Assembly (NCBI GenBank): GCA_045546975.1
Contig: JAZQDV010000007.1
Span: forward strand, 73,176-137,175
Direction: 5' to 3'
Origin: Eubacteriales bacterium
GTDB taxonomy: Bacteria > Bacillota > Clostridia > Oscillospirales > JAAYXM01
Length of the DNA: 64,000 nt
In this document: positions 8,197 through 19,886 of the stretch, in pieces
Layout: the number at the start of each line of letters is the position of its first letter
Numbering within the stretch: position 1 is the first letter of the stretch
Program-made: the position numbers and the translations under genes
The notes under the pieces: generated by a model
What the model saw: only the letters and a program-made list of their open reading frames with translations
The model's database searches: none
What the model was told of the DNA's origin: nothing

Positions 8197-9039
8197 ATGA
8201 CAAAAGCAATAACACAAGATTTAATTGAAAATTTCAAAAACCATTTAATCGACGAAGAAAAAGCTTCTGCCACTCTGGAAAAATACATCCGCGACATCAA
8301 GGCTTTTTATGTGTGGGTTTCAGGACTTGAAATCAGCAAGCGAACTGTCCTTGACTATAAGGAGTATTTAATTGGTACTTTTGCACCGGCTTCAGTCAAT
8401 TCCATGCTGTCATCTCTCAATGCTTTTTTTCAGTTTAATGACTGGCATGAACTGAAGGTGAAAATGCTGAAAATCCAAAAGCGGATTTTTGTGCAAAAGG
8501 ACAGAGAACTCACAAAGGCAGAATATGTGAGGTTACTCAAAGCCGCAAAAGAAAAAAACAACGAACGACTTTATTTGTTGATGCAAACTATATGCTCAAG
8601 CGGAATACGGGTATCCGAACTAAAATATGTAACGGTTGAATCCTTAAAGTCAAGAAGCGCGACTATTAACAACAAAGGCAAAATGAGAATTGTCCTTTTG
8701 CCCGCAAAGCTTTGCAGTACCCTAATGGAATATGCAAAGAGGCAAAAAATATCAAGCGGGTCCGTCTTTGTTACAAAAACAGGTAACCCGCTTGACAGAA
8801 GCACTATCTGGAAAATGATGAAGGCGCTTTGCATGAGAGCTCAGGTTTCTGAGCGGAAGGTGTTTCCGCATAACCTGAGACACCTTTTCGCGCGTACCTT
8901 TTACACACTCGAAAAAGATATTGTAAGACTTGCAGACATTCTCGGACATTCAAGCGTAAACACTTCACGGATATACACAATGGAAACGGGTGAAATACAC
9001 CGAAAGAAACTTCAAAAACTTGGGCTCTTGCAATTATAA
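8197..9039 (+). CDS. Small tyrosine site-specific recombinase (candidate DNA invertase)
   Basis: 280 aa. N-terminal SAM-like core-binding region. Candidate catalytic residues: R in GIRVSEL, HNLRH, LGH, Y in SRIYT. No arm-binding domain. The stop codon is 2 nt from the left recombination site. Confidence 0.9.
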   Translation: MTKAITQDLIENFKNHLIDEEKASATLEKYIRDIKAFYVWVSGLEISKRTVLDYKEYLIGTFAPASVNSMLSSLNAFFQFNDWHELKVKMLKIQKRIFVQKDRELTKAEYVRLLKAAKEKNNERLYLLMQTICSSGIRVSELKYVTVESLKSRSATINNKGKMRIVLLPAKLCSTLMEYAKRQKISSGSVFVTKTGNPLDRSTIWKMMKALCMRAQVSERKVFPHNLRHLFARTFYTLEKDIVRLADILGHSSVNTSRIYTMETGEIHRKKLQKLGLLQL

Positions 9040-9040
9040 A

Positions 9041-9071
9041 AAGCACCACATAATTGAAATTATGTGGTAAG
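9041..9071. repeat. Left recombination site of the invertible segment (AAGCACCACATAATTGAAATTATGTGGTAAG)
   Basis: Palindromic arms ACCACATAA/TTATGTGGT around the asymmetric core TTGAAA. Its partner at 9304-9334 carries TTTCAA. Confidence 0.8.
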
Positions 9072-9303
9072 ACATAACAAATCAGGCATCAAAGGGAACT
9101 AAATTACCGTATGGCAAACGCAAATTTTTTCAAAAAACGACACAGTATTTAGACCGGTCTTGTTGATTTTGTAAAACCGGTCTGCTCCGTTGTGCCATTT
9201 TTAATGCACATTGATGATTTTTTCATAAAATAATTGCGAATCATTGACAAACCCCCTTCGAGCATATTATAATACGTATGCTCGAATATTATTTTGAAAC
9301 AGA
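9072..9303. other. Invertible DNA segment (inverton) carrying a promoter
   Basis: Bounded by the two 31-bp sites, adjacent to the recombinase gene, and contains the 9244-9273 promoter. Confidence 0.7.
9244..9273 (+). promoter_or_regulatory. Near-consensus sigma-A promoter inside the invertible segment, currently facing tetR and the giant gene
   Basis: TTGACA (9244-9249), 18-nt spacer, TATAAT (9268-9273). The -10 element sits in the loop of the CGAGCATA...TATGCTCG hairpin. Confidence 0.7.
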
Positions 9304-9334
9304 AAGCACCACATAATTTCAATTATGTGGTAAG
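9304..9334. repeat. Right recombination site (AAGCACCACATAATTTCAATTATGTGGTAAG)
   Basis: 29/31 identical to 9041-9071. The only differences turn the central TTGAAA into its reverse complement TTTCAA. Confidence 0.8.
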
Positions 9335-9418: not shown

Positions 9419-9976
9419 ATGGACAGTTTTGATGAGTTCGACAAAAAGAAAGCAATCATTGCAAAGACCTGGGATTATCTTTTGAAAACCGGCCTCGCGA
9501 ATGCTTCAATAGGAGATTTGTGCAGAGAGACAAAGCTTGCTCAAAGCAGCTTGTATTATTGGTTTGAAAACAAGGACGATATATGGATAAGCGCCGGAAA
9601 GTACGGCACCTCAAAGGTAGTTGACGCACTCCTGGATTTTACTATGAACCACACAAACGATGTCAGCAAGTACTTCGACACTCTTTTAGACGAGGTCGAA
9701 AAGTACAAGTACGAGTTGCGCCTGGCTGTTCAGATTACCACAAGTCCCGTGTTCGGTAATCGTATGCGTGATAAGGCAAAGGATTTCAGGCTGTGGTATG
9801 AGCGCTATGCCGAAAAATTGATGAACATATTTGGCTGTTCCTATCTACAAGCAGAAACCTTTATTTATTCTATCATCGCCTATGTAATTGACTACGCTAT
9901 ATGGGATGATAGAGACAAAACACAAATGCTGCTTGATAATCTTCGCACGAGACTAAGCGACAAGCTCGGCATTTAG
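9419..9976 (+). CDS. TetR/AcrR-family transcriptional regulator
   Basis: 185 aa. N-terminal HTH ASIGDLCRETKLAQSSLYYWFENKDDI. Confidence 0.8.
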   Translation: MDSFDEFDKKKAIIAKTWDYLLKTGLANASIGDLCRETKLAQSSLYYWFENKDDIWISAGKYGTSKVVDALLDFTMNHTNDVSKYFDTLLDEVEKYKYELRLAVQITTSPVFGNRMRDKAKDFRLWYERYAEKLMNIFGCSYLQAETFIYSIIAYVIDYAIWDDRDKTQMLLDNLRTRLSDKLGI

Positions 9977-10003: not shown

Positions 10004-10252
10004 TTGATAGAAAATACCTATGGAAGCTGGGAGCTCTTGGCAATAATTTTCGCAGTTCCCCTGCTATTGCTTATATTGCTTGCTTTTGTTGTGAATGTCT
10101 GGCTGCCCTTCATAAGAAACAGACATTACATAAAAAAAGAAATGCACAGATCAGACGGCGGTGAATACAGATACTGGAAGCGAGAGCTTAAACTGCTGTA
10201 TCTGAGGCACATTCCGATAGTCGGATGGTTTTTCCGTGAAAAATACAGATAA
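10004..10252 (+). CDS. Small single-pass membrane protein (TTG start)
   Basis: 82 aa. One clear TM helix (LLAIIFAVPLLLLILLAFVVNVWLPF) and a basic C-terminus. No family recognised. Confidence 0.45.
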   Translation: MIENTYGSWELLAIIFAVPLLLLILLAFVVNVWLPFIRNRHYIKKEMHRSDGGEYRYWKRELKLLYLRHIPIVGWFFREKYR

Positions 10253-10513
10253 ATATTCAGCTTCGGCTGTTTGTTTATATATTAAGGCGGCGAGCAATTT
10301 CCTTACTTTGACAGATGTTGGCAGTAGTTTGAATAAGTACATGCCGCCCGTAAAAAATTGACAACTGCCGCAAGACATCTTGGAGGTGAGGTCATTTATC
10401 CGCACATTATTTTGCAAAAAGAGCAGAGTCAGCAAAATAATATATCCCAGAAACTCTGCCCGAATGCGAAAACGGAATTTTCGCAAAAATCTATTTAAGG
10501 AGGCGTTTTTAAG

Positions 10514-13500
10514 TTGAGACTTAAAAGAATTATGGCTATGTTCCTTTGCTTTGCAATGGTACTTAGCACAATGGGAACAACAGTATTTGCAGAAAATACT
10601 GCTGTTGTTTCAGCCGAGGCAACCGCCGTTTCGGACAATAATCTGTATGTAAATACAGATTACAATTCCGAGACAGAAGGCTACGGCGTAACAAGATTTG
10701 CCAACTATAATGCGGCATATGCATATGCTGTAGCAAACAACACATCTGCAACCATTGTTGTCGAGAAAAACAACAGTATTTCCGGGTTCTGTTTTGATAA
10801 TAACCACAAGAATTATACTAAACTTGCGGTTGTAATTAAAGATGGAGCCACAATGGGTGTATCGCTTTCAAAGTGGGATATGACCTATCCTGTTACTGTA
10901 GAAGCAGGTGGTACTCTCACATGTGCTCGCCCGAAAAATGCCAGTGTCAGCAACATTCACATTAAGAATAAGCTAATCATTGGTACTGAGGGTTCTGATA
11001 AACAAGCATACTGCTATTTCCTAAGCGACAGCTACCAGGATTGTGATATTAGTATCCGTTACAACGGTTCTATTACTGCATACAATGCCGTTATGACCGT
11101 TCAGGATCTTGATGCACAAGGCAGCTTCACTGCAACCGATAGCAATATCACAGTTGACGGTGCATTCGCATCTGCCACTTGGTATGCTACAACGCTTACT
11201 GATTCGGATATGCAGATCAATGGTAACCAGATCAGCGGTGGCCTATCTGATTTTTCCGGTGGAGATAATAATCAACTCGGAAAAGTAACGCTGAACGGTG
11301 ATTCTTCTATTTCGTTTGCTGAAGGCTCAGCAGTTGATGTAGCGGCTACTGTTACTGTAAACGGAAACTCCTACATTACAGCTGACACGCTGACTGTTGA
11401 GAAAAATAAGAAAATTAACGTCAACGGTACATCTTCTGTAAGTGCTCAGACACTTACAAATAACGGTACCATCGCAACTACAAGCGGATCCACGGTAACT
11501 GCCAAAACAGTGAGCGAGGAATCCACCGGCACCGTAACGATTGACGGTGAAGAAGCTGCGTTTGATGAGAGCGGAAACCTTGTTCTCCCCGCTGCACCTG
11601 TCGCAACTGTCGACGGTGTACCTTACACAGAGCTTCAGGCTGCACTCGATGCGGCTGCAGCAGGCGAAGGCAATGTAACAGTTGAGATCCTTGAAAATAT
11701 CAATCTCACAAATGTTGACTGGAATCCCGTAACCGTAAGCGCTCCCAAATATCCTGTTGTTACTGTTAATGGTAACGGCAAGATAATTACAGGTCTGAAT
11801 GATATGCTCTTTGCGGGCACATGGGCTGGTGGCTCCGGCCTTATCATCAACGACCTTACAATTGCGGACTCCGCTATTATTAATGATAAAGACGATACAA
11901 ACGGCAATGTTGGCGTTGGTGCGTTCATTGGATTCCCCCAGGCAAGTGCAACAGTTACTCTCAACAACTGTCATCTTGTTGACTCCCGTGTTGAAGGTGG
12001 TCACTGGACAGGCGGTCTCATAGGTTATGCAGCAGGTTACGCTGGCAATGACGGTCCTGTATTCATGAATTTGACAATCAACGAGTGCTCCGTTACCGGC
12101 TCCACCATTACCGGTAAGGGCTCTGCAGGCGGTATCATCGGTCATGCTACAGGTAATGCTTGGACACAGGTTACCATCACAGATACAACTGTTTCCGGCA
12201 ATACCGTTGCGTCTACAGGTTCTTCTACCAACAAAGCCGGTGCTGTAATCGGTACTATTGGTGCTGCCGGTCAGGCGACAACTGTTAACGGTGTAGAAAA
12301 AACCGGCGGTGTATCCGTTGCAGCAACAGTTAGCGGTAACACTGTAACATCCAGCAGTACAACAATTACAACAATCTACGGTCGTCAGGGCACCGACACA
12401 GGTATGCTCTATGTATCTGGCGGTGAATATGACAATTATCCGATAGAAGAAAATGTTGCTTACGCTGCTCCTATCGAAGGGTATGAAATTGCAGATAATG
12501 GCAATGGTACTTGGGGCATAGCAGAAGAAACTATTCTCTCCGGCGCAGGTACACAGGAAGATCCTTATCTCATTGAAGATATCGATGACTTGACCCTCTT
12601 TAGAGATAACGTAAACAACGGAACAGATTATGACGGTCAGTATGTAAAGTTGATGAGTGATATCGACCTTACAAGCGTCGAAAACTGGATCCCGATTGGT
12701 GCGTATGGTTCACACGCAAACGAGATGACATTCCGCGGTTATTTTGATGGTAACAACAAAACTATCAGCAATCTGACCGTCAATGACACAACAAGCACAG
12801 CTGATATACTTGGCTTGTTCGGTCATATTCATGGCGACGGTATGAAGAATACTTTGGAGCCGTCTGTCAAGAATCTGACATTGACCAATGTAAACATCTC
12901 AAGCACAGACAGCGCTTCAAGAATCGGCGGTCTTGCAGGTAATCCTTACACATGTTATCTCGAGAATGTACATGTCTCAGGAACTATTTCAGGCGGTAAG
13001 TGGACCGGCGGTATCGCAGGTAACTGTTACACAGTATTTGAAAACTGTTCATTTACCGGAACTGTTGACAGTAACAACCAGGCAGGTGGTATTGCCGGCG
13101 CAGGCGATGCTCGTGTATACAACAGCAAGGTCATCGGTGATATTACCGCTACATATTGGGCAGGCGGTATCATCGGTAACGGTCAGGAAGGCGCTTCTGC
13201 TGTAGGCTGTTATGCAAAGGGTACTGTTACTGCTGAAAGCAACTGGTACTTTGGTGTCGGTGGTATTGCCGGTGTTGGCGGACACGGCTACGAAGGCAGT
13301 GTTTATGAAGATAACTACTTCGACGGTGAAGTATATCTCGGAGAAACCAAGGTAAATGCAATCGTTGTCGGTTTTGTAAACGCAGACGGCAACGAAGCAA
13401 TGAATACAGTTGTAGATGGCAACTCATGGAATACTGAATACTATGCAGCAGATACCCCGGTCGTTGTTACAGCTGATGTAACATCAGATATTTCTCCTGA

Positions 13501-16500
13501 GGACTGGGCAGCGTCCGCATCTGAGGAAAAGAGCTCAGTTCGTAACAACAATCTCGTTATGTTGGAAAGCGACATTCAGTATGTAGATGCAACTTCTATG
13601 GATAATGTTACCATTATGAAGTTCTCTGAGGTAACTGAAGAAGAGGTTGAGGTCCAGATCGAGAAAAACAACCTTGTTGCAAAGATAGGTGAAACCGGAT
13701 TCGCATCTCTCGCAGAAGCTATCGTGGCTGCAAATGCTATGACAGGCGATGTCACTGTTGAAATTTACGCTAAGGTTGAATATAACGACGCAACAGCAAG
13801 CCTTACAGGTGCATATGATTCTATCAACTTTGTTGGTAAAACAGAAGATGCTGAAATTTCTATCACCAGAAATGGCTCTAATGGTTACATTTCAGGCGAG
13901 GGCAATGATTGTAAGGTAACATTTACAGACCTTATTCTTTCAAAGCCCGAAGGGCATTACGCAAATGATGCGGGCTTCATGAACATGGCGTTCAGTGTTT
14001 ACAGAGTTGCCTCTGTCAAATATACGAACTGTCAGTTCCCCAACGGTGCATGTGCGGCAGGATGCCCGACTACATATACAAACTGTACTTTTGAAAAATC
14101 TCACGAAAAGTATGCTTTATGGGCATATGGTACAGAGGTTGTAGTTGACGAGTGTACATTCGATGATGACAGAGGTATAAAGATGTATGCTGAGGGCTCT
14201 GCAAAAACAACCGAACTTACAGTTACGAACACGGACTTCTCTAAATTGACATCAAAGCCTGCTATCGTAGCTACACTCGGCCAGAGCATAACTCTTTCAG
14301 GCAATACATATTCTGCCAAGGGTGTTCTCGAGCTTGAGGATAACGGCAGCTCCAACGGTATTGAAATTACTTCCGAGGATGTTGTGACCTGTATCAGTGA
14401 CGCATATCCGGACGGATGCGGTGTTCTTGTTGACGGTGCCATCTATCGTACTGTTGCAGAAGCAGCAGAAGTTGCAGAGGAAGGCAGCACGGTAACACTT
14501 CTTCACAATTCAACAGAAACAGTTGAACTTTCAGAGGGCGTAACCCTTGACAAGAACGGCTTCACTGCTGACGGTGTAACTGTTAAAGTATCTGTTGCCG
14601 CAAAAATCGGTGAGACATATTACGAGACCGTTCAGGCGGCAATCAATGCGGCGCAGAGTGGCGACACCGTTGAAATTCTCCCCGGAGAATATGACCCTAT
14701 CAACATCAGCAGCAAGAATATCACCATTCAGGGTACCGTAGGTGATAACGGTGAATTGCTTACCACCATCAAGGGCGGCAATCCTGCAATTACCGGCCAC
14801 TCTTTTAACGGTACGATTAAGGATCTTAAGATCGTTGATGCATGGAAGGTTATGTATGCAGAACCGGCAGGAAATATAACCGTTGATAATGTTTATGTAA
14901 CCGGTGCTACATACGGTTTCCACCTTGTAGCTTATTCTGAAGGTCTGACATGGACTATCCAGAATAGCTATATGGATTTGCGTTGGGCAAACTCCTTAGG
15001 TGTATACAAAGACGGTGATGCAGAAATCATCATCAAGGGTAACGAATTTGTTTCAACAGATCCGTACTACTCTGATTACGGTGCTCTTCATGTGAATTCG
15101 TTCTTGCCGAATGTAACTGTTGAAGAGAACATTTTCCGTGAAAACGCAAAGATTTACATCGATGCTTCTGTAACGGACACTTCCAACATCAATATTTCCA
15201 AGAACTATCATGCTGACGGTGTTGAAAATGCATTCGCAGATGATACTGACGGCGTGACGGTAAAAATTGATTCGTACTATACCGTAATAGAAGAAGACGG
15301 TACTCTTTCAGGCCTTGTAGAAGTTGTTGATCCCGCCGCAAAAATCGGCGATACAACATACGAAACACTTGCAGCGGCTATCGCGGCTGTCAAGGAAGGC
15401 GAAACAATCACAATGCTTGCTGATACAACTGTTTCAGAGAATGTTACACTTCCTGCAGGCATTACATTTAACGGTAATGGAAAGAAGATCAGCAGAGAAA
15501 ACGGTGCAATTATTTATGCGGGCGGCGAATTGACATTTGAAGGATATACAACTATTGCTAATTTCAATGCCAACGGCAAAACAATTAACATTGGCGAGGG
15601 TGCAACCCTTGAAACAACTGACGGAAGAATGGTTATCGGTCACGGAGCTACATTTAACATTACAGGCTCGATTGCCGATGCGAAAACTGCAGATGTAACA
15701 AATATTACACCTTCCCTCATTGCCCCCGGAGTATCATTCACAGGTGCAGGTGTGAACTTTAATGTAACAAATGCATATGTTAAATTTACAGCTTACTGTT
15801 CTTCAAAAAACAGTAATGCGAGCGGCACATATAACATTAATGTAAATAACAGCATTTGGGAACAGACAGGTTCTTTGGTTTTCTCAGAGCCTACAAACGG
15901 AATGGACCCGACCTTTAACTTCAAAGTTAAAGACAGCGTACTTAACAGCACAAGCCACCTTGTTTTTGCTGTAACAAAGGGCGAAATCGTTTTTGACAAT
16001 TCTGTTGTAAACGAAGGCGTACACAGACAGCTTGAAAACCGCAGCAACCTGACAATTAAGAACGGTTCTGTTGTTTATGCTGCTCACGCAACAAGCTCCA
16101 ACGCAAAGAATCCCGGCACAACTATCGTTGAAAACGCAACTTACATAGCTACCGGTGATTTTAGTGGCTCGGATGTCGGCACAGGCACACTTATTGTTAA
16201 GAAGGGTGCAATTGTGAATATGGGTAAGATTACCAAGGCAAATATCGTTGTTGACGCAACCGATATGGCTGCCGGCGATGTTGTTGGTATCACAGCTAAC
16301 CTGTCCGCCCTTGAAGGTACAATAAGTGTTGTCAATAACAATCTGGACGCTGAAATTGTAGACGGAGCGATTGTTCTTGTTGAAAAACCAGTTGCACAGA
16401 TTGGTGATGAGAAGTTTGCATCGCTCGAAGAGGCATTCAAAGCAGCAACCGATGGATGTACCATCACTTTGATGAGCGACATTACCGTAAGCGAGCTTTG

Positions 16501-18346
16501 GGATTGCCGTTACAACGGTGCAAAGTTCACTGTTCCTGTAACAATCGACGGTAACAACAAGACACTTAAACTCACGGGCGCAGTTGATGACAAGAACTGG
16601 AACACAGTATTCAGATTTGAGGCTGATGCTACAGTCAAGAACCTTACAATCGACGCGAGTGAAGCAACAGGCATCCAGAGAGGTATCTCTGCTAAGTCAA
16701 GCATTACTGTTGAAAACTGCACATTCATAGGTAACGGAACATCAACAAAGCGCGGTGTTATCTTCGGTGAAGGCGCAGGCACAGCACTTTCCGATGTAGT
16801 TGCAACAATTACAAACTCCAAATTCACAAATTGGAGCTATGGCGTTTCTGATAACCAGAGCGGTAAGGATGCAAAGTCTGTTTCTGTTACAGGCTCTACC
16901 TTCATTAACGCAAGCGCACTCTTGAGTGCTTCCGACTCGGTAACATTTACAGGCAATACTGTATCAGACGGTTATGTAAATATCACTTCTTACACCGCAG
17001 CTGATACTGCTACTGTTGTTGCAACAGGCAACAATCTTGTAGGCACTGATGATGAAATTACTGTAAATCCCGAAAACATAACCTCAGATGATTCATTCAT
17101 TACTCCTGTTGCCAAGATTGGCTCTAAGTATTATGAGACCTTAGATAAAGCAATCAGCAAGGCAGCAGTTGGTGACACAGTTGTTCTTTTAACTGATGTT
17201 GAGCTTTCGGATACAATTACAATTCCTACTGACAAGAAGATTACTCTTGACTTAAGCAGCAAGACAATCACAGGTACAGATAATACTGAAAAGAATTTCA
17301 GTCTTATCGATAACCGCGGTGATCTTACCATTACAGGAAACGGTACTATGACTCTTACTGCTACCGTCAACTCCGGATGGAACCGTTACTCTGCAGTTCT
17401 TGCAAACAACCCCGGCGGTAAGCTTACCATTGAAAACGGTACGTTTGAGCACCTCGGTGGCACCGATATGGCTTACGGTATTGACAACCTTACAAACGGC
17501 AAGGGAACCTATGCTGAAACCATAATTAACGGCGGTACAATCAAGTCCACTTACCGTGGTATCCGTCAGTTCCTCAACGGTATTGAAGCACAGAACATTC
17601 TCACAGTTAACGGCGGTACTGTTGAAGGCACTAACAAGTCTATCTGGATGCAGGATCCGAACAAGAACGCAAACACAGGTACACTTACTGTTACTGATGG
17701 CGCTACCTTGAACGGCGACGTGTATCTGACTGTAACAGAAGGTTCTACCGAATGGCCTGTTGAAGTAAGCATTGCTAAATCAGCAGTAAACGGACAGGTT
17801 CTTACTAATGGAAACGAGCCTGCAGGATATGAGCTGGTTGAAGAAAACGGAACCTACGGCGTAATAGAAAAAGAAATAGTAACTCCGTTCAAGGACGCTC
17901 CGTTGTTCTTGGCAGGACTTCCGGATGAAGTTATTGACGGTGTAACATACCACCCCGTTTATATGGCAACCTCTATTGATTCATTGAATTATAGAAAGGT
18001 CGGATTTGATTACACCTTCTCAATTTTCGATACTGAAACAGGCGAGGTTACTTTCTCGGTACCGTATACAACCGAAACAAGTGAGGTATACTCTTCTATC
18101 AGCGATGCTAATACAACATATACAGTTGACAGCATTGGCGGAAACGGTGAATACTTGTTTATGAATAAGTTGCTGTTCCACGCAGAACATTATCACAACA
18201 ATAACACAAAGGTTACCATCACACCGTACGCTATTGATACGAACGGAAACAAAATCACCGGCTGGACAATTGATATGACAAATGAATTCTATAAGTCACT
18301 TCAGTCTGGTGATGTAAAACAGGATATGTTCAAGGAGGGAAACTAA
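10514..18346 (+). CDS. Giant secreted surface protein (2610 aa) with GLUG-like motif blocks and multiple parallel beta-helix-type modules
   Basis: AGGAGG RBS 10 nt before the TTG start. Signal peptide MRLKRIMAMFLCFAMVLSTMGTTVFA|ENT. Two blocks of GG[LI][IA]G motifs. At least 6 recurrences of the module cap V-A-[KQ]-I-G-x-x-x-[YF]-x-[ST]-L-x-x-A. No LPXTG, SLH or dockerin seen. Confidence 0.9.
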   Translation: MRLKRIMAMFLCFAMVLSTMGTTVFAENTAVVSAEATAVSDNNLYVNTDYNSETEGYGVTRFANYNAAYAYAVANNTSATIVVEKNNSISGFCFDNNHKNYTKLAVVIKDGATMGVSLSKWDMTYPVTVEAGGTLTCARPKNASVSNIHIKNKLIIGTEGSDKQAYCYFLSDSYQDCDISIRYNGSITAYNAVMTVQDLDAQGSFTATDSNITVDGAFASATWYATTLTDSDMQINGNQISGGLSDFSGGDNNQLGKVTLNGDSSISFAEGSAVDVAATVTVNGNSYITADTLTVEKNKKINVNGTSSVSAQTLTNNGTIATTSGSTVTAKTVSEESTGTVTIDGEEAAFDESGNLVLPAAPVATVDGVPYTELQAALDAAAAGEGNVTVEILENINLTNVDWNPVTVSAPKYPVVTVNGNGKIITGLNDMLFAGTWAGGSGLIINDLTIADSAIINDKDDTNGNVGVGAFIGFPQASATVTLNNCHLVDSRVEGGHWTGGLIGYAAGYAGNDGPVFMNLTINECSVTGSTITGKGSAGGIIGHATGNAWTQVTITDTTVSGNTVASTGSSTNKAGAVIGTIGAAGQATTVNGVEKTGGVSVAATVSGNTVTSSSTTITTIYGRQGTDTGMLYVSGGEYDNYPIEENVAYAAPIEGYEIADNGNGTWGIAEETILSGAGTQEDPYLIEDIDDLTLFRDNVNNGTDYDGQYVKLMSDIDLTSVENWIPIGAYGSHANEMTFRGYFDGNNKTISNLTVNDTTSTADILGLFGHIHGDGMKNTLEPSVKNLTLTNVNISSTDSASRIGGLAGNPYTCYLENVHVSGTISGGKWTGGIAGNCYTVFENCSFTGTVDSNNQAGGIAGAGDARVYNSKVIGDITATYWAGGIIGNGQEGASAVGCYAKGTVTAESNWYFGVGGIAGVGGHGYEGSVYEDNYFDGEVYLGETKVNAIVVGFVNADGNEAMNTVVDGNSWNTEYYAADTPVVVTADVTSDISPEDWAASASEEKSSVRNNNLVMLESDIQYVDATSMDNVTIMKFSEVTEEEVEVQIEKNNLVAKIGETGFASLAEAIVAANAMTGDVTVEIYAKVEYNDATASLTGAYDSINFVGKTEDAEISITRNGSNGYISGEGNDCKVTFTDLILSKPEGHYANDAGFMNMAFSVYRVASVKYTNCQFPNGACAAGCPTTYTNCTFEKSHEKYALWAYGTEVVVDECTFDDDRGIKMYAEGSAKTTELTVTNTDFSKLTSKPAIVATLGQSITLSGNTYSAKGVLELEDNGSSNGIEITSEDVVTCISDAYPDGCGVLVDGAIYRTVAEAAEVAEEGSTVTLLHNSTETVELSEGVTLDKNGFTADGVTVKVSVAAKIGETYYETVQAAINAAQSGDTVEILPGEYDPINISSKNITIQGTVGDNGELLTTIKGGNPAITGHSFNGTIKDLKIVDAWKVMYAEPAGNITVDNVYVTGATYGFHLVAYSEGLTWTIQNSYMDLRWANSLGVYKDGDAEIIIKGNEFVSTDPYYSDYGALHVNSFLPNVTVEENIFRENAKIYIDASVTDTSNINISKNYHADGVENAFADDTDGVTVKIDSYYTVIEEDGTLSGLVEVVDPAAKIGDTTYETLAAAIAAVKEGETITMLADTTVSENVTLPAGITFNGNGKKISRENGAIIYAGGELTFEGYTTIANFNANGKTINIGEGATLETTDGRMVIGHGATFNITGSIADAKTADVTNITPSLIAPGVSFTGAGVNFNVTNAYVKFTAYCSSKNSNASGTYNINVNNSIWEQTGSLVFSEPTNGMDPTFNFKVKDSVLNSTSHLVFAVTKGEIVFDNSVVNEGVHRQLENRSNLTIKNGSVVYAAHATSSNAKNPGTTIVENATYIATGDFSGSDVGTGTLIVKKGAIVNMGKITKANIVVDATDMAAGDVVGITANLSALEGTISVVNNNLDAEIVDGAIVLVEKPVAQIGDEKFASLEEAFKAATDGCTITLMSDITVSELWDCRYNGAKFTVPVTIDGNNKTLKLTGAVDDKNWNTVFRFEADATVKNLTIDASEATGIQRGISAKSSITVENCTFIGNGTSTKRGVIFGEGAGTALSDVVATITNSKFTNWSYGVSDNQSGKDAKSVSVTGSTFINASALLSASDSVTFTGNTVSDGYVNITSYTAADTATVVATGNNLVGTDDEITVNPENITSDDSFITPVAKIGSKYYETLDKAISKAAVGDTVVLLTDVELSDTITIPTDKKITLDLSSKTITGTDNTEKNFSLIDNRGDLTITGNGTMTLTATVNSGWNRYSAVLANNPGGKLTIENGTFEHLGGTDMAYGIDNLTNGKGTYAETIINGGTIKSTYRGIRQFLNGIEAQNILTVNGGTVEGTNKSIWMQDPNKNANTGTLTVTDGATLNGDVYLTVTEGSTEWPVEVSIAKSAVNGQVLTNGNEPAGYELVEENGTYGVIEKEIVTPFKDAPLFLAGLPDEVIDGVTYHPVYMATSIDSLNYRKVGFDYTFSIFDTETGEVTFSVPYTTETSEVYSSISDANTTYTVDSIGGNGEYLFMNKLLFHAEHYHNNNTKVTITPYAIDTNGNKITGWTIDMTNEFYKSLQSGDVKQDMFKEGN

Positions 18347-18347
18347 G

Positions 18348-18509
18348 ATGAGAAATTACGAAGAACCAAGACTTGATATTATTGAGCTTGAAGCAAAGGA
18401 TATCATTCAGACAAGCGGCATCTTAACTCCGGGTGGAGATGCCCAGATTCCGGGAACGGGAGTAATCGTACCTATTCCGGGAGCTTCCGCCTTAGATAGC
18501 ACGTATTAA
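18348..18509 (+). CDS. 53-aa ORF starting 1 nt after the giant gene's stop codon
   Basis: The ATG starts 1 nt after the TAA of the giant gene. Translation: MRNYEEPRLDIIELEAKDIIQTSGILTPGGDAQIPGTGVIVPIPGASALDSTY. No signal peptide and no Cys. It shares TGVIVP[IL]P with the next gene. Confidence 0.5.
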   Translation: MRNYEEPRLDIIELEAKDIIQTSGILTPGGDAQIPGTGVIVPIPGASALDSTY

Positions 18510-18524
18510 GAAATAAATATCTCG

Positions 18525-18560
18525 AATAACGGGCAGGTAAACAGCCTGCCCGTTATTTGC
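18525..18560 (+). terminator. Hairpin (probably a partial terminator) after the 53-aa ORF
   Basis: AATAACGGGCAGG-TAAACAG-CCTGCCCGTTATT, followed by a weak T tract. Confidence 0.5.
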
Positions 18561-18589: not shown

Positions 18590-19459
18590 GTGAGAAATTT
18601 CATTAAAACTATATGTTTGTTGTTAGCAACACTTAATTTGTTTTCCATTACTGCTTTTGCAGAGCTGGAGGTAGGCAATAATTTTGACCTTGGCAATTCA
18701 ACCGGCGTTATTGTTCCGCTTCCGAGCGATGATAAAGATGACGGACAGCAGGGTTCTTCATCCAATAGTAACAACAACGGAAATGGCAACGGCGGCAATA
18801 ACAGCGTTGGTGGCGGTGGCGGTTCTTACATACCGGCTACAAAACCGGACAAGGAGACCGAAACACAACAAGAATCAACGCAAACAGAAAATAATATCAA
18901 AACTTTTTCCGATATAAAACAAAACGATTGGTTTTACAGTGATGTAATGTTTGTTTCTAATAATAAGATTATGACAGGTACGAGCGAGAGTGAATTTTCA
19001 CCGAACACCACACTTAATCGTGCCATGATGATTACAATTTTACATAGGATTGACGGAGACAGTTCCACTTATAAAAAAGATATATTTAATGATGTTGAAA
19101 AAAACAGCTGGTACGAAAATGCTGTAAATTGGGGATATGAAAATAAAATCGTTACAGGCACAAGTGCGAATACCTTTGCTCCCAAAAACAATTTAACCCG
19201 TGAGCAGCTTTGCGTCATGCTTTACAATTATACAAAACATATTGGAGTTAAAACTGAATTTGCCGACACATCCTCTTTCTCTGACAACAACACAGTTTCA
19301 GATTGGGCAAAAGATGCCGTTTCCTGGGCAGTGCAGGAGAAGATTGTGACAGGAAAAGGAAACAATACACTTGCTCCCAAGGACAGTGCCACAAGAGCGG
19401 AAGCAGCAGCGGTTATAAGACGGTACACAGAAAAATTTGTAGAAATCGAGGAAAAATAA
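18590..19459 (+). CDS. Secreted protein with three C-terminal SLH (S-layer homology) domains
   Basis: GTG start. Signal peptide ...LFSITAFA|ELEV. Low-complexity N/G/S linker. Three SLH repeats (FSDI..DWFYSDV, FNDV..SWYENAVNW, FSDN..SDWAKDAVSW). Confidence 0.88.
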   Translation: MRNFIKTICLLLATLNLFSITAFAELEVGNNFDLGNSTGVIVPLPSDDKDDGQQGSSSNSNNNGNGNGGNNSVGGGGGSYIPATKPDKETETQQESTQTENNIKTFSDIKQNDWFYSDVMFVSNNKIMTGTSESEFSPNTTLNRAMMITILHRIDGDSSTYKKDIFNDVEKNSWYENAVNWGYENKIVTGTSANTFAPKNNLTREQLCVMLYNYTKHIGVKTEFADTSSFSDNNTVSDWAKDAVSWAVQEKIVTGKGNNTLAPKDSATRAEAAAVIRRYTEKFVEIEEK

Positions 19460-19460
19460 A

Positions 19461-19886
19461 TTGCCACCATCATTGATTTCCAGATCATTAAGGTTTTTTA
19501 TTACAAGCATAATTTGTTCTTTGCCCATATTTATCGGACAGTTGCTGTCAATCACAGATAACGGTATATTGTTTTTTTCTTTTATAGTTTTTGCTATTGA
19601 GATAGGCATTGACTCATACCATTTTTCTTTTGTTTTCTTAGGAATAGAAAATTATTGTTTTTATCAGCTTTTGCCACTCGTTATATATCTTATTACCGGT
19701 TTTTTTACTTGTTTGTTATTTCCGCCTTTTATATTCAACAGAATTTTTCTGCCTCTAAGATTTGCAGGAATCTTCGGAATGAGTACTATTGCATCAATAG
19801 CCATCACTTCGATAATCTTTATAGTAATAGTGACCGTTCTGAGGTTTTTCGGAGCAAGAGCAGGTCGTTTATTTGCAAATATGTAA
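19461..19886 (+). CDS. Possible polytopic membrane protein (TTG start)
   Basis: 141 aa, very hydrophobic, AT-rich DNA, no clear RBS. It could be an artefact of composition. Confidence 0.3.
   Translation: MPPSLISRSLRFFITSIICSLPIFIGQLLSITDNGILFFSFIVFAIEIGIDSYHFSFVFLGIENYCFYQLLPLVIYLITGFFTCLLFPPFIFNRIFLPLRFAGIFGMSTIASIAITSIIFIVIVTVLRFFGARAGRLFANM

Follow-up and report, generated by a model that had tools for sequence, protein, structure and literature searches.

In Clostridioides difficile, the large surface protein CwpV is phase-variable through the RecV-inverted cwpV switch and is anchored in cis by its CWB2 repeats. In the cellulosome of Clostridium thermocellum, the type-II dockerin of CipA binds type-II cohesins on the SLH proteins SdbA, OlpB and Orf2p. 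T9SS cargo, too, is normally attached to the surface. Gut and rumen metagenomes commonly contain giant mosaic beta-helix proteins, which are uncharacterised. Here we describe a cassette built around one such giant, found in a window of 64,000 nucleotides (the whole stretch of DNA that was analysed), which gives a concrete idea of how a beta-helix giant of a Gram-positive organism mounts on its cell. Our leading reading, in which we place about as much belief as doubt, is that this modular protein is docked through its C-terminal domain (CTD) to a peptide of a separate SLH adaptor, the operon being phase-switched. The giant belongs to a known type; attachment through a partner of this sort looks as if it has not yet been described, and the docking cassette appears new.

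The giant gene lies at 10514-18346 on the forward strand and is, as the initial annotation held, a real ORF of 2610 aa. Its product, of about 280 kDa, ends in ..DMFKEGN; the source is a gut or rumen Clostridia bacterium. Translation starts at a TTG codon with AAGGAGG 9 nt upstream, a start that is supported because the homologues open with the same MKLKRILAMFLCFAMVLSTMG..VFA as the giant. The first 26 residues (10514-10591) form a signal peptide of the Sec type, judged by eye and conserved in relatives, which reads MRLKRIMAMFLCFAMVLSTMGTTVFA before EN and is the sole hydrophobic stretch of the giant; cleavage is expected after VFA, as was proposed earlier. It is followed by a T-, N- and G-rich N-terminal region (aa 27-355, 10592-11578) that is common to about 20 homologues, has no Pfam match in a segment scan and reaches at most 26% against the modules in hhalign. 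The remainder consists of six modules of cap plus beta-helix, one GLUG block, one orphan cap and the CTD. The giant is predicted to be a Sec-exported, non-enzymatic-looking surface fibre or adhesin.

The module structure emerges when the protein is taken apart. Scanned whole, the giant has no match in Pfam or NCBIfam, and a PDB sequence search with the whole protein likewise gave none. The whole-protein family scan is misleading, and segment scans were therefore needed for both GLUG and Beta_helix. Scanned alone, aa 672-1050 match GLUG (PF07581) in four stretches at 28.0 bits (E 2.5e-6), membership being defined by the repeated ~28-aa motif scoring above the Pfam gathering cut-off of 20.5 bits, and aa 1048-1362 match PF13229 at 37.1 bits against a cut-off of 25.9 (E 3e-9), so that the GLUG likeness and the beta-helix reading put forward for this protein both hold. 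All eight of the G-G-[LIV]-[IA]-G motifs reported before are present, at aa 500, 539 and 576 and at aa 805, 832, 858, 884 and 916, and composition shuffles contain 0.18 on average. The proposed cap motifs, whose nucleotide positions had been given correctly to within a few bases, fared less uniformly. Four match the exact expression (aa 1055, 1362, 1960 and 2199), which occurs 0 times in 20000 shuffles, while those at aa ~362 and ~1608 each depart from it at a single position. A looser cap, said to lie near nt 14436, is found at aa 1304 and brings the total to seven, but it is an orphan cap (aa 1301-1358, 14414-14587) with no helix body behind it, and its only hhalign matches (92-97%) are the caps that open modules 5, 6 and 7.

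Modules 1, 3, 4, 5, 6 and 7, each a cap plus a beta-helix, are mutually homologous in profile-profile comparison (hhalign 92-99%), which bears out the idea of serial modules. Module 1 (aa 356-672, 11579-12529), whose helix carries GGLIG/GGIIG/GAVIG turns, is the most conserved, with at least 65% identity in 54 of 119 homologues and 61-75% identity to proteins of Bacteroidota and Kiritimatiellae. Module 2 (aa 673-1045, 12530-13648) is the GLUG block, with five GG[LI][AI]G motifs and an hhalign value of 97.8% to module 1. Module 3 (aa 1050-1300, 13661-14413) is the sole direct match to PF13229, to which the other modules are linked through their 92-99% hhalign homology to it; Beta_helix also matches the aligned region of one homologue (P0009), and GLUG that of another (P0013) at 35.3 bits. 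Module 4 (aa 1359-1603, 14588-15322) is related to module 3 at 97.6% and to module 7 at 97.7%, module 5 (aa 1604-1955, 15323-16378) to modules 6 and 7 at 98.7%, module 6 (aa 1956-2194, 16379-17095) to module 3 at 98% and to module 7 at 98.8%, and module 7 (aa 2195-2452, 17096-17869), which has 120 homologous segments among relatives, to modules 1, 3, 4, 5 and 6 at 96.7-98.8%, all in hhalign. An AF2 model of module 1 (pLDDT 85.3, pTM 0.88) agrees with the suggested cap and fold, with a cap made of a hairpin and one helix and, behind it, about 30 short strands. Its top 50 Foldseek matches in the PDB are right-handed beta-helices, bar two or three of low probability; the best are the IgA1-protease beta-helix domains 3n6z, 6xja and 7uvk and pectin methylesterases, with modest TM-scores of at most 0.44.

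The likeness to M26 IgA1 proteases (S. pneumoniae ZmpA, 6xja; G. haemolysans, 7uvk; B. ovatus BACOVA_03286, 3n6z) consists of these best matches of the module 1 model and of the GLUG motifs in module 2; both are also large Gram-positive surface proteins, in the case of the giant by prediction. In contrast to these enzymes, the giant has no M26 catalytic domain and no LPXTG, and its helix is repeated many times, forming the whole body of the protein. Peptidase_M26_N stays sub-threshold in the module 2 region (16.2 bits against a cut-off of 27.7), there is no match to Peptidase_M26_C and HExxH occurs nowhere in the giant. We rejected an identity as an IgA protease, as there is no catalytic motif.

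Bacteroidales and Lentimicrobiaceae encode giant T9SS cargo proteins that are true homologues of the giant with the same mosaic construction, and its modules are 40-75% identical to theirs. In NCBI they are named 'T9SS type A sorting domain-containing protein' and 'right-handed parallel beta-helix repeat-containing protein'. Homologues contain the same modules in differing orders, and their extreme C-terminus varies with lineage, being a T9SS sorting domain in Bacteroidota; T9SS-type tails terminate 74 of 120 homologues. Whereas the T9SS cargo homologues have Por_Secre_tail (PF18962) or a tail akin to it at their end, the giant ends in the orphan CTD and sits in a Gram-positive cassette with an SLH adaptor. 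By sequence comparison, then, its modules are part of a pool shuffled among giants of gut and rumen Clostridia, Bacteroidota and Kiritimatiellae.

The claim that the giant lacks an anchor of its own was examined in nine segments, none of which contains a conventional anchor domain at E<=10. SLH (PF00395) is absent from all nine at this threshold, Por_Secre_tail is missing from the Pfam segment scans though present in many homologues, and neither these scans (E<=10) nor NCBIfam revealed CWB2, choline-binding repeats, LysM, SH3b or GW. The giant contains no LPxTG, NPxTG or LPx[TSA][GAN] and no hydrophobic 19-mer besides the signal peptide. No match to Dockerin_1 or Cohesin came up for the giant, its CTD or the small ORF behind the giant gene (Pfam E<=10), nor for the adaptor (E<=0.01).

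What the giant does have at its end is the CTD. The distinct C-terminal region had been put at ~190 aa; the actual unit is smaller, about 158 aa (aa ~2453-2610, 17870-18343), and is an orphan beta-sandwich marked by the motif GIDSLxYxxVGF and the tail LF[KR]E. Its AF2 model is a confident beta-sandwich (pLDDT 90.9) that appears complete. No Pfam (E<=10) or NCBIfam family matches the CTD, and comparison of the model with the PDB and BFVD gave no specific match and no similarity to a known peptide-binding or anchoring fold, cohesins being absent among the top 50 PDB matches and CBMs among the top ones. An exhaustive HMMER search of 1.84 billion (1.84e9) representatives found the CTD in 52 proteins, always secreted ones, either at the extreme C-terminus or right behind the signal peptide; in at least eight it is N-terminal, directly after a Sec signal peptide, with no small ORF adjacent. 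A word-indexed search, a method too insensitive here, returned one fragment, and a contig scan with the CTD returned no locus. Across loci whose other modules differ, the CTD is 78-88% identical. A second CTD protein was sought within the window, and none was found.

The cassette recurs in related loci (designated by L numbers) with a recombinase, an inverton, a TetR regulator, a small membrane protein, the giant, an ORF of 50-65 aa, often an SLH protein, and a membrane protein. Upstream of the giant, a single-pass membrane protein of 82 aa (10004-10252, forward strand, like all the cassette genes) has the conserved tail ..YWKRELK.LYL..IPI.G.F.R, and L015, L018, L022 and L025 carry homologues of it in the corresponding place. 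The last gene (19461-19886) encodes a conserved polytopic membrane protein of 141 aa with orthologues in L001 and L015, and membrane proteins of similar size occupy its position in L018, L022, L025 and L026; neither the 82-aa nor the 141-aa protein was assigned to a family. The small ORF (53 aa, 18348-18509) begins 1 nt past the stop codon of the giant (TAAgATG). It comes directly after the giant gene in each of the 13 related loci that cover the 3' end of the latter, and was found nowhere else; a word-indexed search with it, again too insensitive, gave three close relatives. Its N-terminal half, 24 aa in the window, is conserved and leader-like, its tail is variable, and it has no export signal.

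The SLH adaptor (289 aa, 18590-19459) consists of a signal peptide, a conserved N-terminal peptide of about 25 aa (ELEVGNNFDLGNSTGVIVPLP), a linker rich in G, N and S, and three SLH domains (Pfam SLH, E 1e-34, three stretches). In the orthologues of L001, L002 and L015 the peptide is unchanged from that in the window, but the linker diverges, and in L021 an adaptor of the same architecture lies behind a CTD of just ~30-35% identity. In related Oscillospiraceae, SLH domains are normally carried in cis on large proteins, and a contig scan with the adaptor returned such ordinary proteins together with two close adaptors at contig ends. The tail of the small ORF resembles the adaptor peptide, with scores of 30-50 within its own clade and 13-22 against the other clade, a co-variation seen in only two independent clades. 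TGVIVP is common to both, with differing synonymous codons; we considered recent gene conversion as the source of the similarity and rejected it, as the synonymous sites differ.

As the giant has no anchor of its own and a gene for a bare SLH adaptor lies beside it, it is probably hooked to the wall through a partner, and anchoring in trans is, on these sequence grounds, well motivated. The CTD would be the docking module at the C-terminus of the giant and, after export, would bind the N-terminal peptide of the adaptor encoded two genes downstream. The three SLH domains of the adaptor would in turn hold the secondary cell-wall polymer, so that the giant would come to sit on the wall non-covalently. 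By mimicking the adaptor peptide, the tail of the small ORF may fill that binding site itself or contend for it, in the role of a placeholder, chaperone or release factor. Some observations sit less easily with this scheme. No adaptor is found in what has been sequenced of L018, L019/L020, L022, L025 and L026, whereas nearly all the related loci have the small ORF and a membrane protein; the primary partner of the CTD may therefore not be the adaptor. Moreover, the missing export signal makes the small ORF a poor fit with an extracellular role. A further point against the adaptor model is a GC-rich hairpin (18529-18553, ACGGGCAGG..CCTGCCCGT and then TATTTG, read from the sequence) that divides the small ORF from the SLH gene; it was not called by the terminator scan because its T-run is too short.

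The proposed attachment follows the same logic as the cellulosome, in which a huge secreted modular protein with a C-terminal docking module is held non-covalently by an SLH anchor encoded nearby. However, the giant cassette has no dockerin or cohesin signature and its polarity is reversed, with the ~158-aa sandwich on the cargo and just a ~25-aa peptide offered by the anchor, and the small ORF that mimics this peptide has no cellulosomal counterpart. Chaperone-usher pili, with their donor-strand complementation and exchange, offer an analogy only: an Ig-like sandwich, a short N-terminal peptide of the partner with alternating hydrophobics (GVIVPLP) and a second look-alike strand. Unlike such pili, the cassette is Gram-positive and has no chaperone or usher, the CTD model looks complete and the small ORF lacks a signal peptide.

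Other readings place the function of the CTD, or the fate of the giant, elsewhere. The CTD could itself be the anchoring or targeting module, a CBM-like sandwich that binds the wall polymer of the cell itself or a glycan from the host or the diet, with the SLH protein unrelated to it. This we regard as unlikely, although a beta-sandwich of ~150 aa at either end of secreted proteins is just how CBMs occur and many CTD loci have no SLH adaptor in their sequenced part; the absence of any CBM from the family matches (E<=10) and the top structure matches of the CTD speaks against it, and it leaves unexplained both why a peptide-only SLH protein recurs beside CTD genes of 30-88% identity and why the small ORF carries a copy of the adaptor peptide. 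We are more sceptical still of a dedicated pathway for sorting or maturation, which would do in a Gram-positive cell what the T9SS C-terminal signal does, made up of the CTD, the small ORF and the two membrane proteins, with the N-terminus of the small ORF as a leader, an S24-like peptidase and an HprK-like 'ScmC' in some loci and the SLH adaptor optional. The constancy of the small ORF behind the giant and its leader-like design, the membrane proteins in most loci, the recurrence of ScmC-like and S24-like genes in L001, L019, L021 and L022 and the position of the CTD where Bacteroidota homologues have their T9SS domain would all suit such a pathway. Yet the giant already has a Sec signal peptide, there is no ScmC or S24 gene near the window cassette, and the CTD is also found N-terminally in proteins without an adjacent small ORF, which argues against a position-dependent sorting signal. 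A literature search on 'ScmC' and on combinations of GLUG, beta-helix and SLH found nothing relevant.

It is improbable, in our judgement, that the giant leaves the cell unanchored, to act as a soluble enzyme on polysaccharides or as a factor in matrix formation or aggregation. Such a role could be read from the lack of an anchor in cis and from the resemblance of the beta-helix modules to pectin methylesterases, PL6 lyases and phage depolymerases. But the best structural matches are non-catalytic beta-helix domains of IgA1 proteases, the one carbohydrate-enzyme match, to Pectate_lyase, lies in module 6 and stays below threshold (E 0.0013; 18.8 bits, cut-off 25), HExxH is lacking, the Bacteroidota relatives are T9SS cargo and the adaptor gene is conserved beside the giant gene.

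Returning to docking on the adaptor, we could speculate further, and this wider proposal seems to us possible though doubtful, that the CTD, the adaptor peptide and the peptide-mimicking ORF make up a docking system of modular design in gut and rumen Clostridia that has so far gone unrecognised. Here a portable sandwich, set at one end or the other of varied secreted proteins, would catch the short peptide of a bare SLH anchor with locus-specific pairing, while a co-translated small peptide with a look-alike strand would serve as placeholder or release factor in the manner of donor-strand exchange. In this way horizontally shared giant beta-helix adhesins would be mounted under phase-variable control. 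Such a system would be a functional counterpart of cohesin-dockerin pairs and of the T9SS tail. If the pairing of CTD and peptide is true, it would constitute a new non-covalent module for surface display, in which the tag is a small peptide and the receptor a compact domain, and would explain how adhesin modules move between phyla by swapping the attachment end. The display of a 280-kDa protein would then be tied to an invertible promoter, a link that bears on how uncultured Clostridia interact with hosts and phages. If the pairing is false, the giant is one more hypothetical beta-helix surface protein.

The phase switch under which the giant had been placed is borne out as a prediction. A tyrosine recombinase of 280 aa, the presumed invertase (8197-9039, forward strand; Pfam Phage_integrase, E 3e-24), has an orthologue of 75% identity in L001, where it takes the same place, and is also present in L015. 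It adjoins an inverton (9045-9331) in which a perfect inverted repeat of 24 nt (arms 9045-9068 and 9308-9331, 100% complementary) encloses 239 bp; the arms, ACATAATTTCAATTATGT, recur ~245 nt apart in both L001 and L015, so that the switch is conserved in two related loci. A consensus-matching promoter within the segment (9244-9273, forward strand; TTGACA-18-TATAAT, 12/12) faces the TetR and giant genes, that is, in the ON orientation, and the segment was seen in a single orientation in the window, L001 and L015. By inverting it, the recombinase would turn the whole operon ON and OFF. As in CwpV, a large clostridial surface protein thus has a segment inverted by a tyrosine recombinase just upstream of its gene; however, the CwpV switch works through a terminator in the leader, while that of the giant is a predicted invertible promoter, and CwpV carries its anchor in cis where the giant has none.

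Further control may be added by a structured leader and by the TetR regulator. The conserved 5' leader of the giant gene (10253-10513, forward strand) contains a GCAGAG/CTCTGC helix as well as an upstream UUCCUU able to pair with the Shine-Dalgarno sequence; the structure comes from an alignment of 4-5 loci with RNAalifold, a weak basis with so few sequences, and the leader has no match in Rfam. The TetR-family regulator (185 aa, 9419-9976, forward strand) is the first gene of the cassette, with a sub-threshold match to Pfam TetR_N (21.3 bits); it is 82% identical in L001 and present in L015, L016, L018, L024 and L025.

The reading frame at 10514-18346 (+), the only long one of its stretch, encodes a secreted giant protein of 2610 aa, which starts at a TTG 9 nt downstream of AAGGAGG and opens with a signal peptide nearly identical in sequence to that of its relatives. 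Its GC content (~0.44) is like that of the remainder of the window, which is ordinary chromosome carrying UvrAB, FtsH, GdpP and Tex. A motif search of the full protein found no LPXTG-like motif, there is no hydrophobic segment besides the signal peptide, and the protein ends in a domain without a known family; the initial annotation was thus right to describe a giant with no anchor of its own. The eight G-G-[LIV]-[IA]-G motifs it had listed are all present, in clusters at aa 500-576 and 805-916, against a mean of 0.18 in shuffled sequences, and the cap pattern that it saw recurring does so in four exact and three near copies, with no exact match in 20000 shuffles.

Scanning the full-length protein against Pfam and NCBIfam reported nothing. 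When the scans were redone on segments of ~300 aa each, Pfam GLUG was found in four stretches of aa 672-1050 (28.0 bits, cut-off 20.5) and Beta_helix in aa 1048-1362 (37.1 bits, cut-off 25.9). Both domains are therefore missed by full-length hmmscan yet exceed the curated cut-offs in segments, and large, compositionally biased mosaics of this type are probably under-annotated for that reason. Per-module alignments built from 119 homologues and compared pairwise by hhalign gave mutual probabilities of 92-99% for modules 1, 3, 4, 5, 6 and 7, aligned from the cap onward, and 97.8% for the GLUG block against module 1; aa 1301-1358 form a cap without a body, and the N-terminal 330 aa are not related to any of the modules. 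In the AlphaFold model of module 1 (pLDDT 85.3, pTM 0.88), the cap motif forms a hairpin and a helix, and ~30 short strands come after it. Its top Foldseek match in the PDB is 3n6z, a Bacteroides ovatus 'putative IgA1 protease', followed by the IgA1 proteases of S. pneumoniae and G. haemolysans and, lower down, by pectin methylesterases, PL6 lyases, phage tailspikes and the L. reuteri SRRP adhesin. Each of these matches is a right-handed beta-helix; with modest TM-scores (<=0.44), they establish the fold class of module 1 and not close kinship. The beta-helix and GLUG readings of the initial annotation are borne out by these results, and the giant belongs among the beta-helix/GLUG giant surface proteins, an already known kind. 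It is not an IgA protease, because the full protein has no HExxH motif.

The giant has at least 225 relatives of 1600-4500 aa, with the same modules in different orders. Most are unannotated, the few exceptions being named 'right-handed parallel beta-helix repeat-containing protein' or 'T9SS type A sorting domain-containing protein'. Module 1 (~317 aa, 11579-12529) is by far the most conserved, with at least 65% identity in 54 of 119 homologues; it is 61-75% identical to giants from Bacteroidaceae, Bacteroidales, Lentimicrobiaceae and Kiritimatiellae MAGs, as high as to Clostridia homologues. The modules flanking it are far more diverged between these proteins. As read from the sequences, this pattern suggests either an exchange of modules between phyla or a constraint of unusual strength. 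Clustering of 120 extreme C-termini gave T9SS-like tails in 74 and another unnamed domain in 22, while the tail type of the giant was common only to the window protein and its homologue P0002. Cargo modules are common to several phyla, and the C-terminal end is lineage-specific.

This C-terminal domain (CTD) spans the last ~158 aa, which are 78-85% identical between the window protein and P0002, the remainder of the two being different mosaics. HMMER, run exhaustively on 1.84 billion representative proteins, found it in only 52. All complete matches have a signal peptide, and the CTD lies either at the extreme C-terminus or, in at least eight proteins, straight after the signal peptide, closing in every case with a conserved LF[KR]E tail. 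Neither the CTD nor ten of its host proteins have a Pfam or NCBIfam family. Modelled with AlphaFold from a 39-sequence alignment, it forms a confident beta-sandwich (pLDDT 90.9, pTM 0.82), for which the PDB and viral libraries gave only generic Ig-like sandwiches (TM <0.45) and no specific match. The distinct C-terminal region of the initial annotation is hence a separate domain, but of ~158 aa and not ~190 aa; with no family and only generic structural matches, it is not a conventional anchor. The proteins with an N-terminal CTD in L021 (2703-6341, P0132) and L023 (1250-5650 and 5783-6241), two related loci, have no adjoining small ORF; L023 carries two such genes in tandem, and L021 combines an N-terminal-CTD protein, a C-terminal-CTD protein and an SLH adaptor.

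Downstream of the giant gene, the adaptor (18590-19459) has no parts other than a signal peptide, an N-terminal peptide of ~25 aa, a linker of low complexity and three SLH domains. Such a bare adaptor is unusual, since the SLH triplets of related Oscillospiraceae as a rule form the C-terminal part of the large proteins themselves, in cis. The adaptor peptide, GNNFDLGNSTGVIVPLP, does not vary between the window, L001 and L002 and differs in L015 by two conservative N-to-S changes, while the linker diverges. In L021, a CTD ~30-35% identical is followed by an adaptor of the same build with a related but distinct peptide, DLTVGESGKIDSSIIFDGVPVVPE. Between the giant and the adaptor lies a small ORF of 53 aa (18348-18509) whose tail mimics the peptide at the mature N-terminus of its own locus's adaptor (18662-18724 in the window). 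Across the window, L001, L015, L019 and L021, the pairs are ..PGTGVIVPIPG.. and ..STGVIVPLP.. in the window clade and GTVGSGGTGDSSIWS and LTVGESGKIDSSIIF in L021; local-alignment scores are 30-50 for cognate and 13-22 for non-cognate pairs, and tail and peptide co-vary between clades, of which there are only two. The codons of the common hexapeptide TGVIVP differ at every synonymous site in the window, so the likeness is maintained at the protein level; this rules out recent gene conversion as its source. A 68% identical SLH adaptor from another Clostridia MAG (L003, 74-952), cut off from its upstream gene by the end of the contig, has a different N-terminal peptide, ..ENETPFLPLNEE.., which could be a second docking specificity.

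The same cassette order is repeated in loci of close and distant CTD proteins: a tyrosine recombinase with inverted repeats (in the window, L001 and L015), a TetR regulator, an ~80-aa membrane protein, the giant gene, a small ORF of 44-65 aa, the SLH protein (in the window, L001, L015 and L021) and a polytopic membrane protein of ~141-172 aa, joined in some loci only by an HprK-like 'ScmC' protein and an S24-like peptidase. The small ORF lies directly 3' of the giant gene in every locus, 1-2 nt past its stop codon except in L024 and L026 (~20-25-nt gap), and in L024 it is present though the giant ends in another domain. A motif search found this family neither in the rest of the window nor in 13 unrelated SLH loci. 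The HprK-like P-loop protein (precomputed Pfam 'ScmC', weak) lies at L001 12287-13395, L019 2425-3542, L021 2006-2719 and L022 7247-8524, with the S24/signal-peptidase-like protein beside it in L001, L019 and L022; both genes are absent near the window's cassette, and we found no literature on either.

We propose that the adaptor peptide is the docking partner of the CTD, so that the giant would be displayed on the wall through the SLH domains, and that the small-ORF peptide would bind at this site too, acting there as placeholder or as competitor, in a cassette whose expression would be phase-variable. A position at either end of the host protein, as the CTD has, is expected for docking or binding modules. 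The CTD could instead bind a glycan or the wall. It could also be the sorting signal of a dedicated pathway, or the giant could be released and not anchored. One weak point of docking lies in five related loci that have no adaptor in their sequenced part, where only the small ORF and a membrane protein follow the giant gene; another, for the role of the small ORF, is its lack of an export signal, and the co-variation of tail and peptide covers two clades only. Docking onto the adaptor, which we prefer, is consistent with the conservation of the adaptor peptide and with the small ORF's imitation of it.

With the proposed docking, the closest functional parallel to the giant would be a cellulosomal scaffoldin on its SLH anchor. 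However, the giant fails every dockerin and cohesin test, and the roles would be swapped: here the cargo carries the sandwich and the anchor the peptide. Its phase-variable control would be similar to that of C. difficile CwpV, which, unlike the giant, is anchored in cis. Of the orphan CTD, the bare SLH adaptor with its peptide, and the peptide-mimic ORF, we found no earlier account in the libraries and papers searched.

The anatomy of the putative switch is visible in the sequence: the inverted-repeat arms (9045-9068 and 9308-9331) are each a near-palindrome, ACCACATAATT-nn-AATTATGTGGT, and enclose a predicted promoter that matches the sigma-70 consensus at 12 of 12 positions and faces the operon. 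The ~260-nt leader 5' of the giant gene (10253-10513) has no Rfam match and is kept in L001, L015 and L018, with an invariant GCAGAG...CTCTGC helix and a GCGAAAA..TTTTCGC hairpin; its upstream UUCCUU is predicted to be able to pair with the Shine-Dalgarno sequence, from sequences too few for real covariation. Between the small ORF and the adaptor gene, a GC-rich hairpin followed by TATTTG (18529-18553), not called by the terminator scan, is possibly a partial terminator and would then set the ratio of cargo to anchor.
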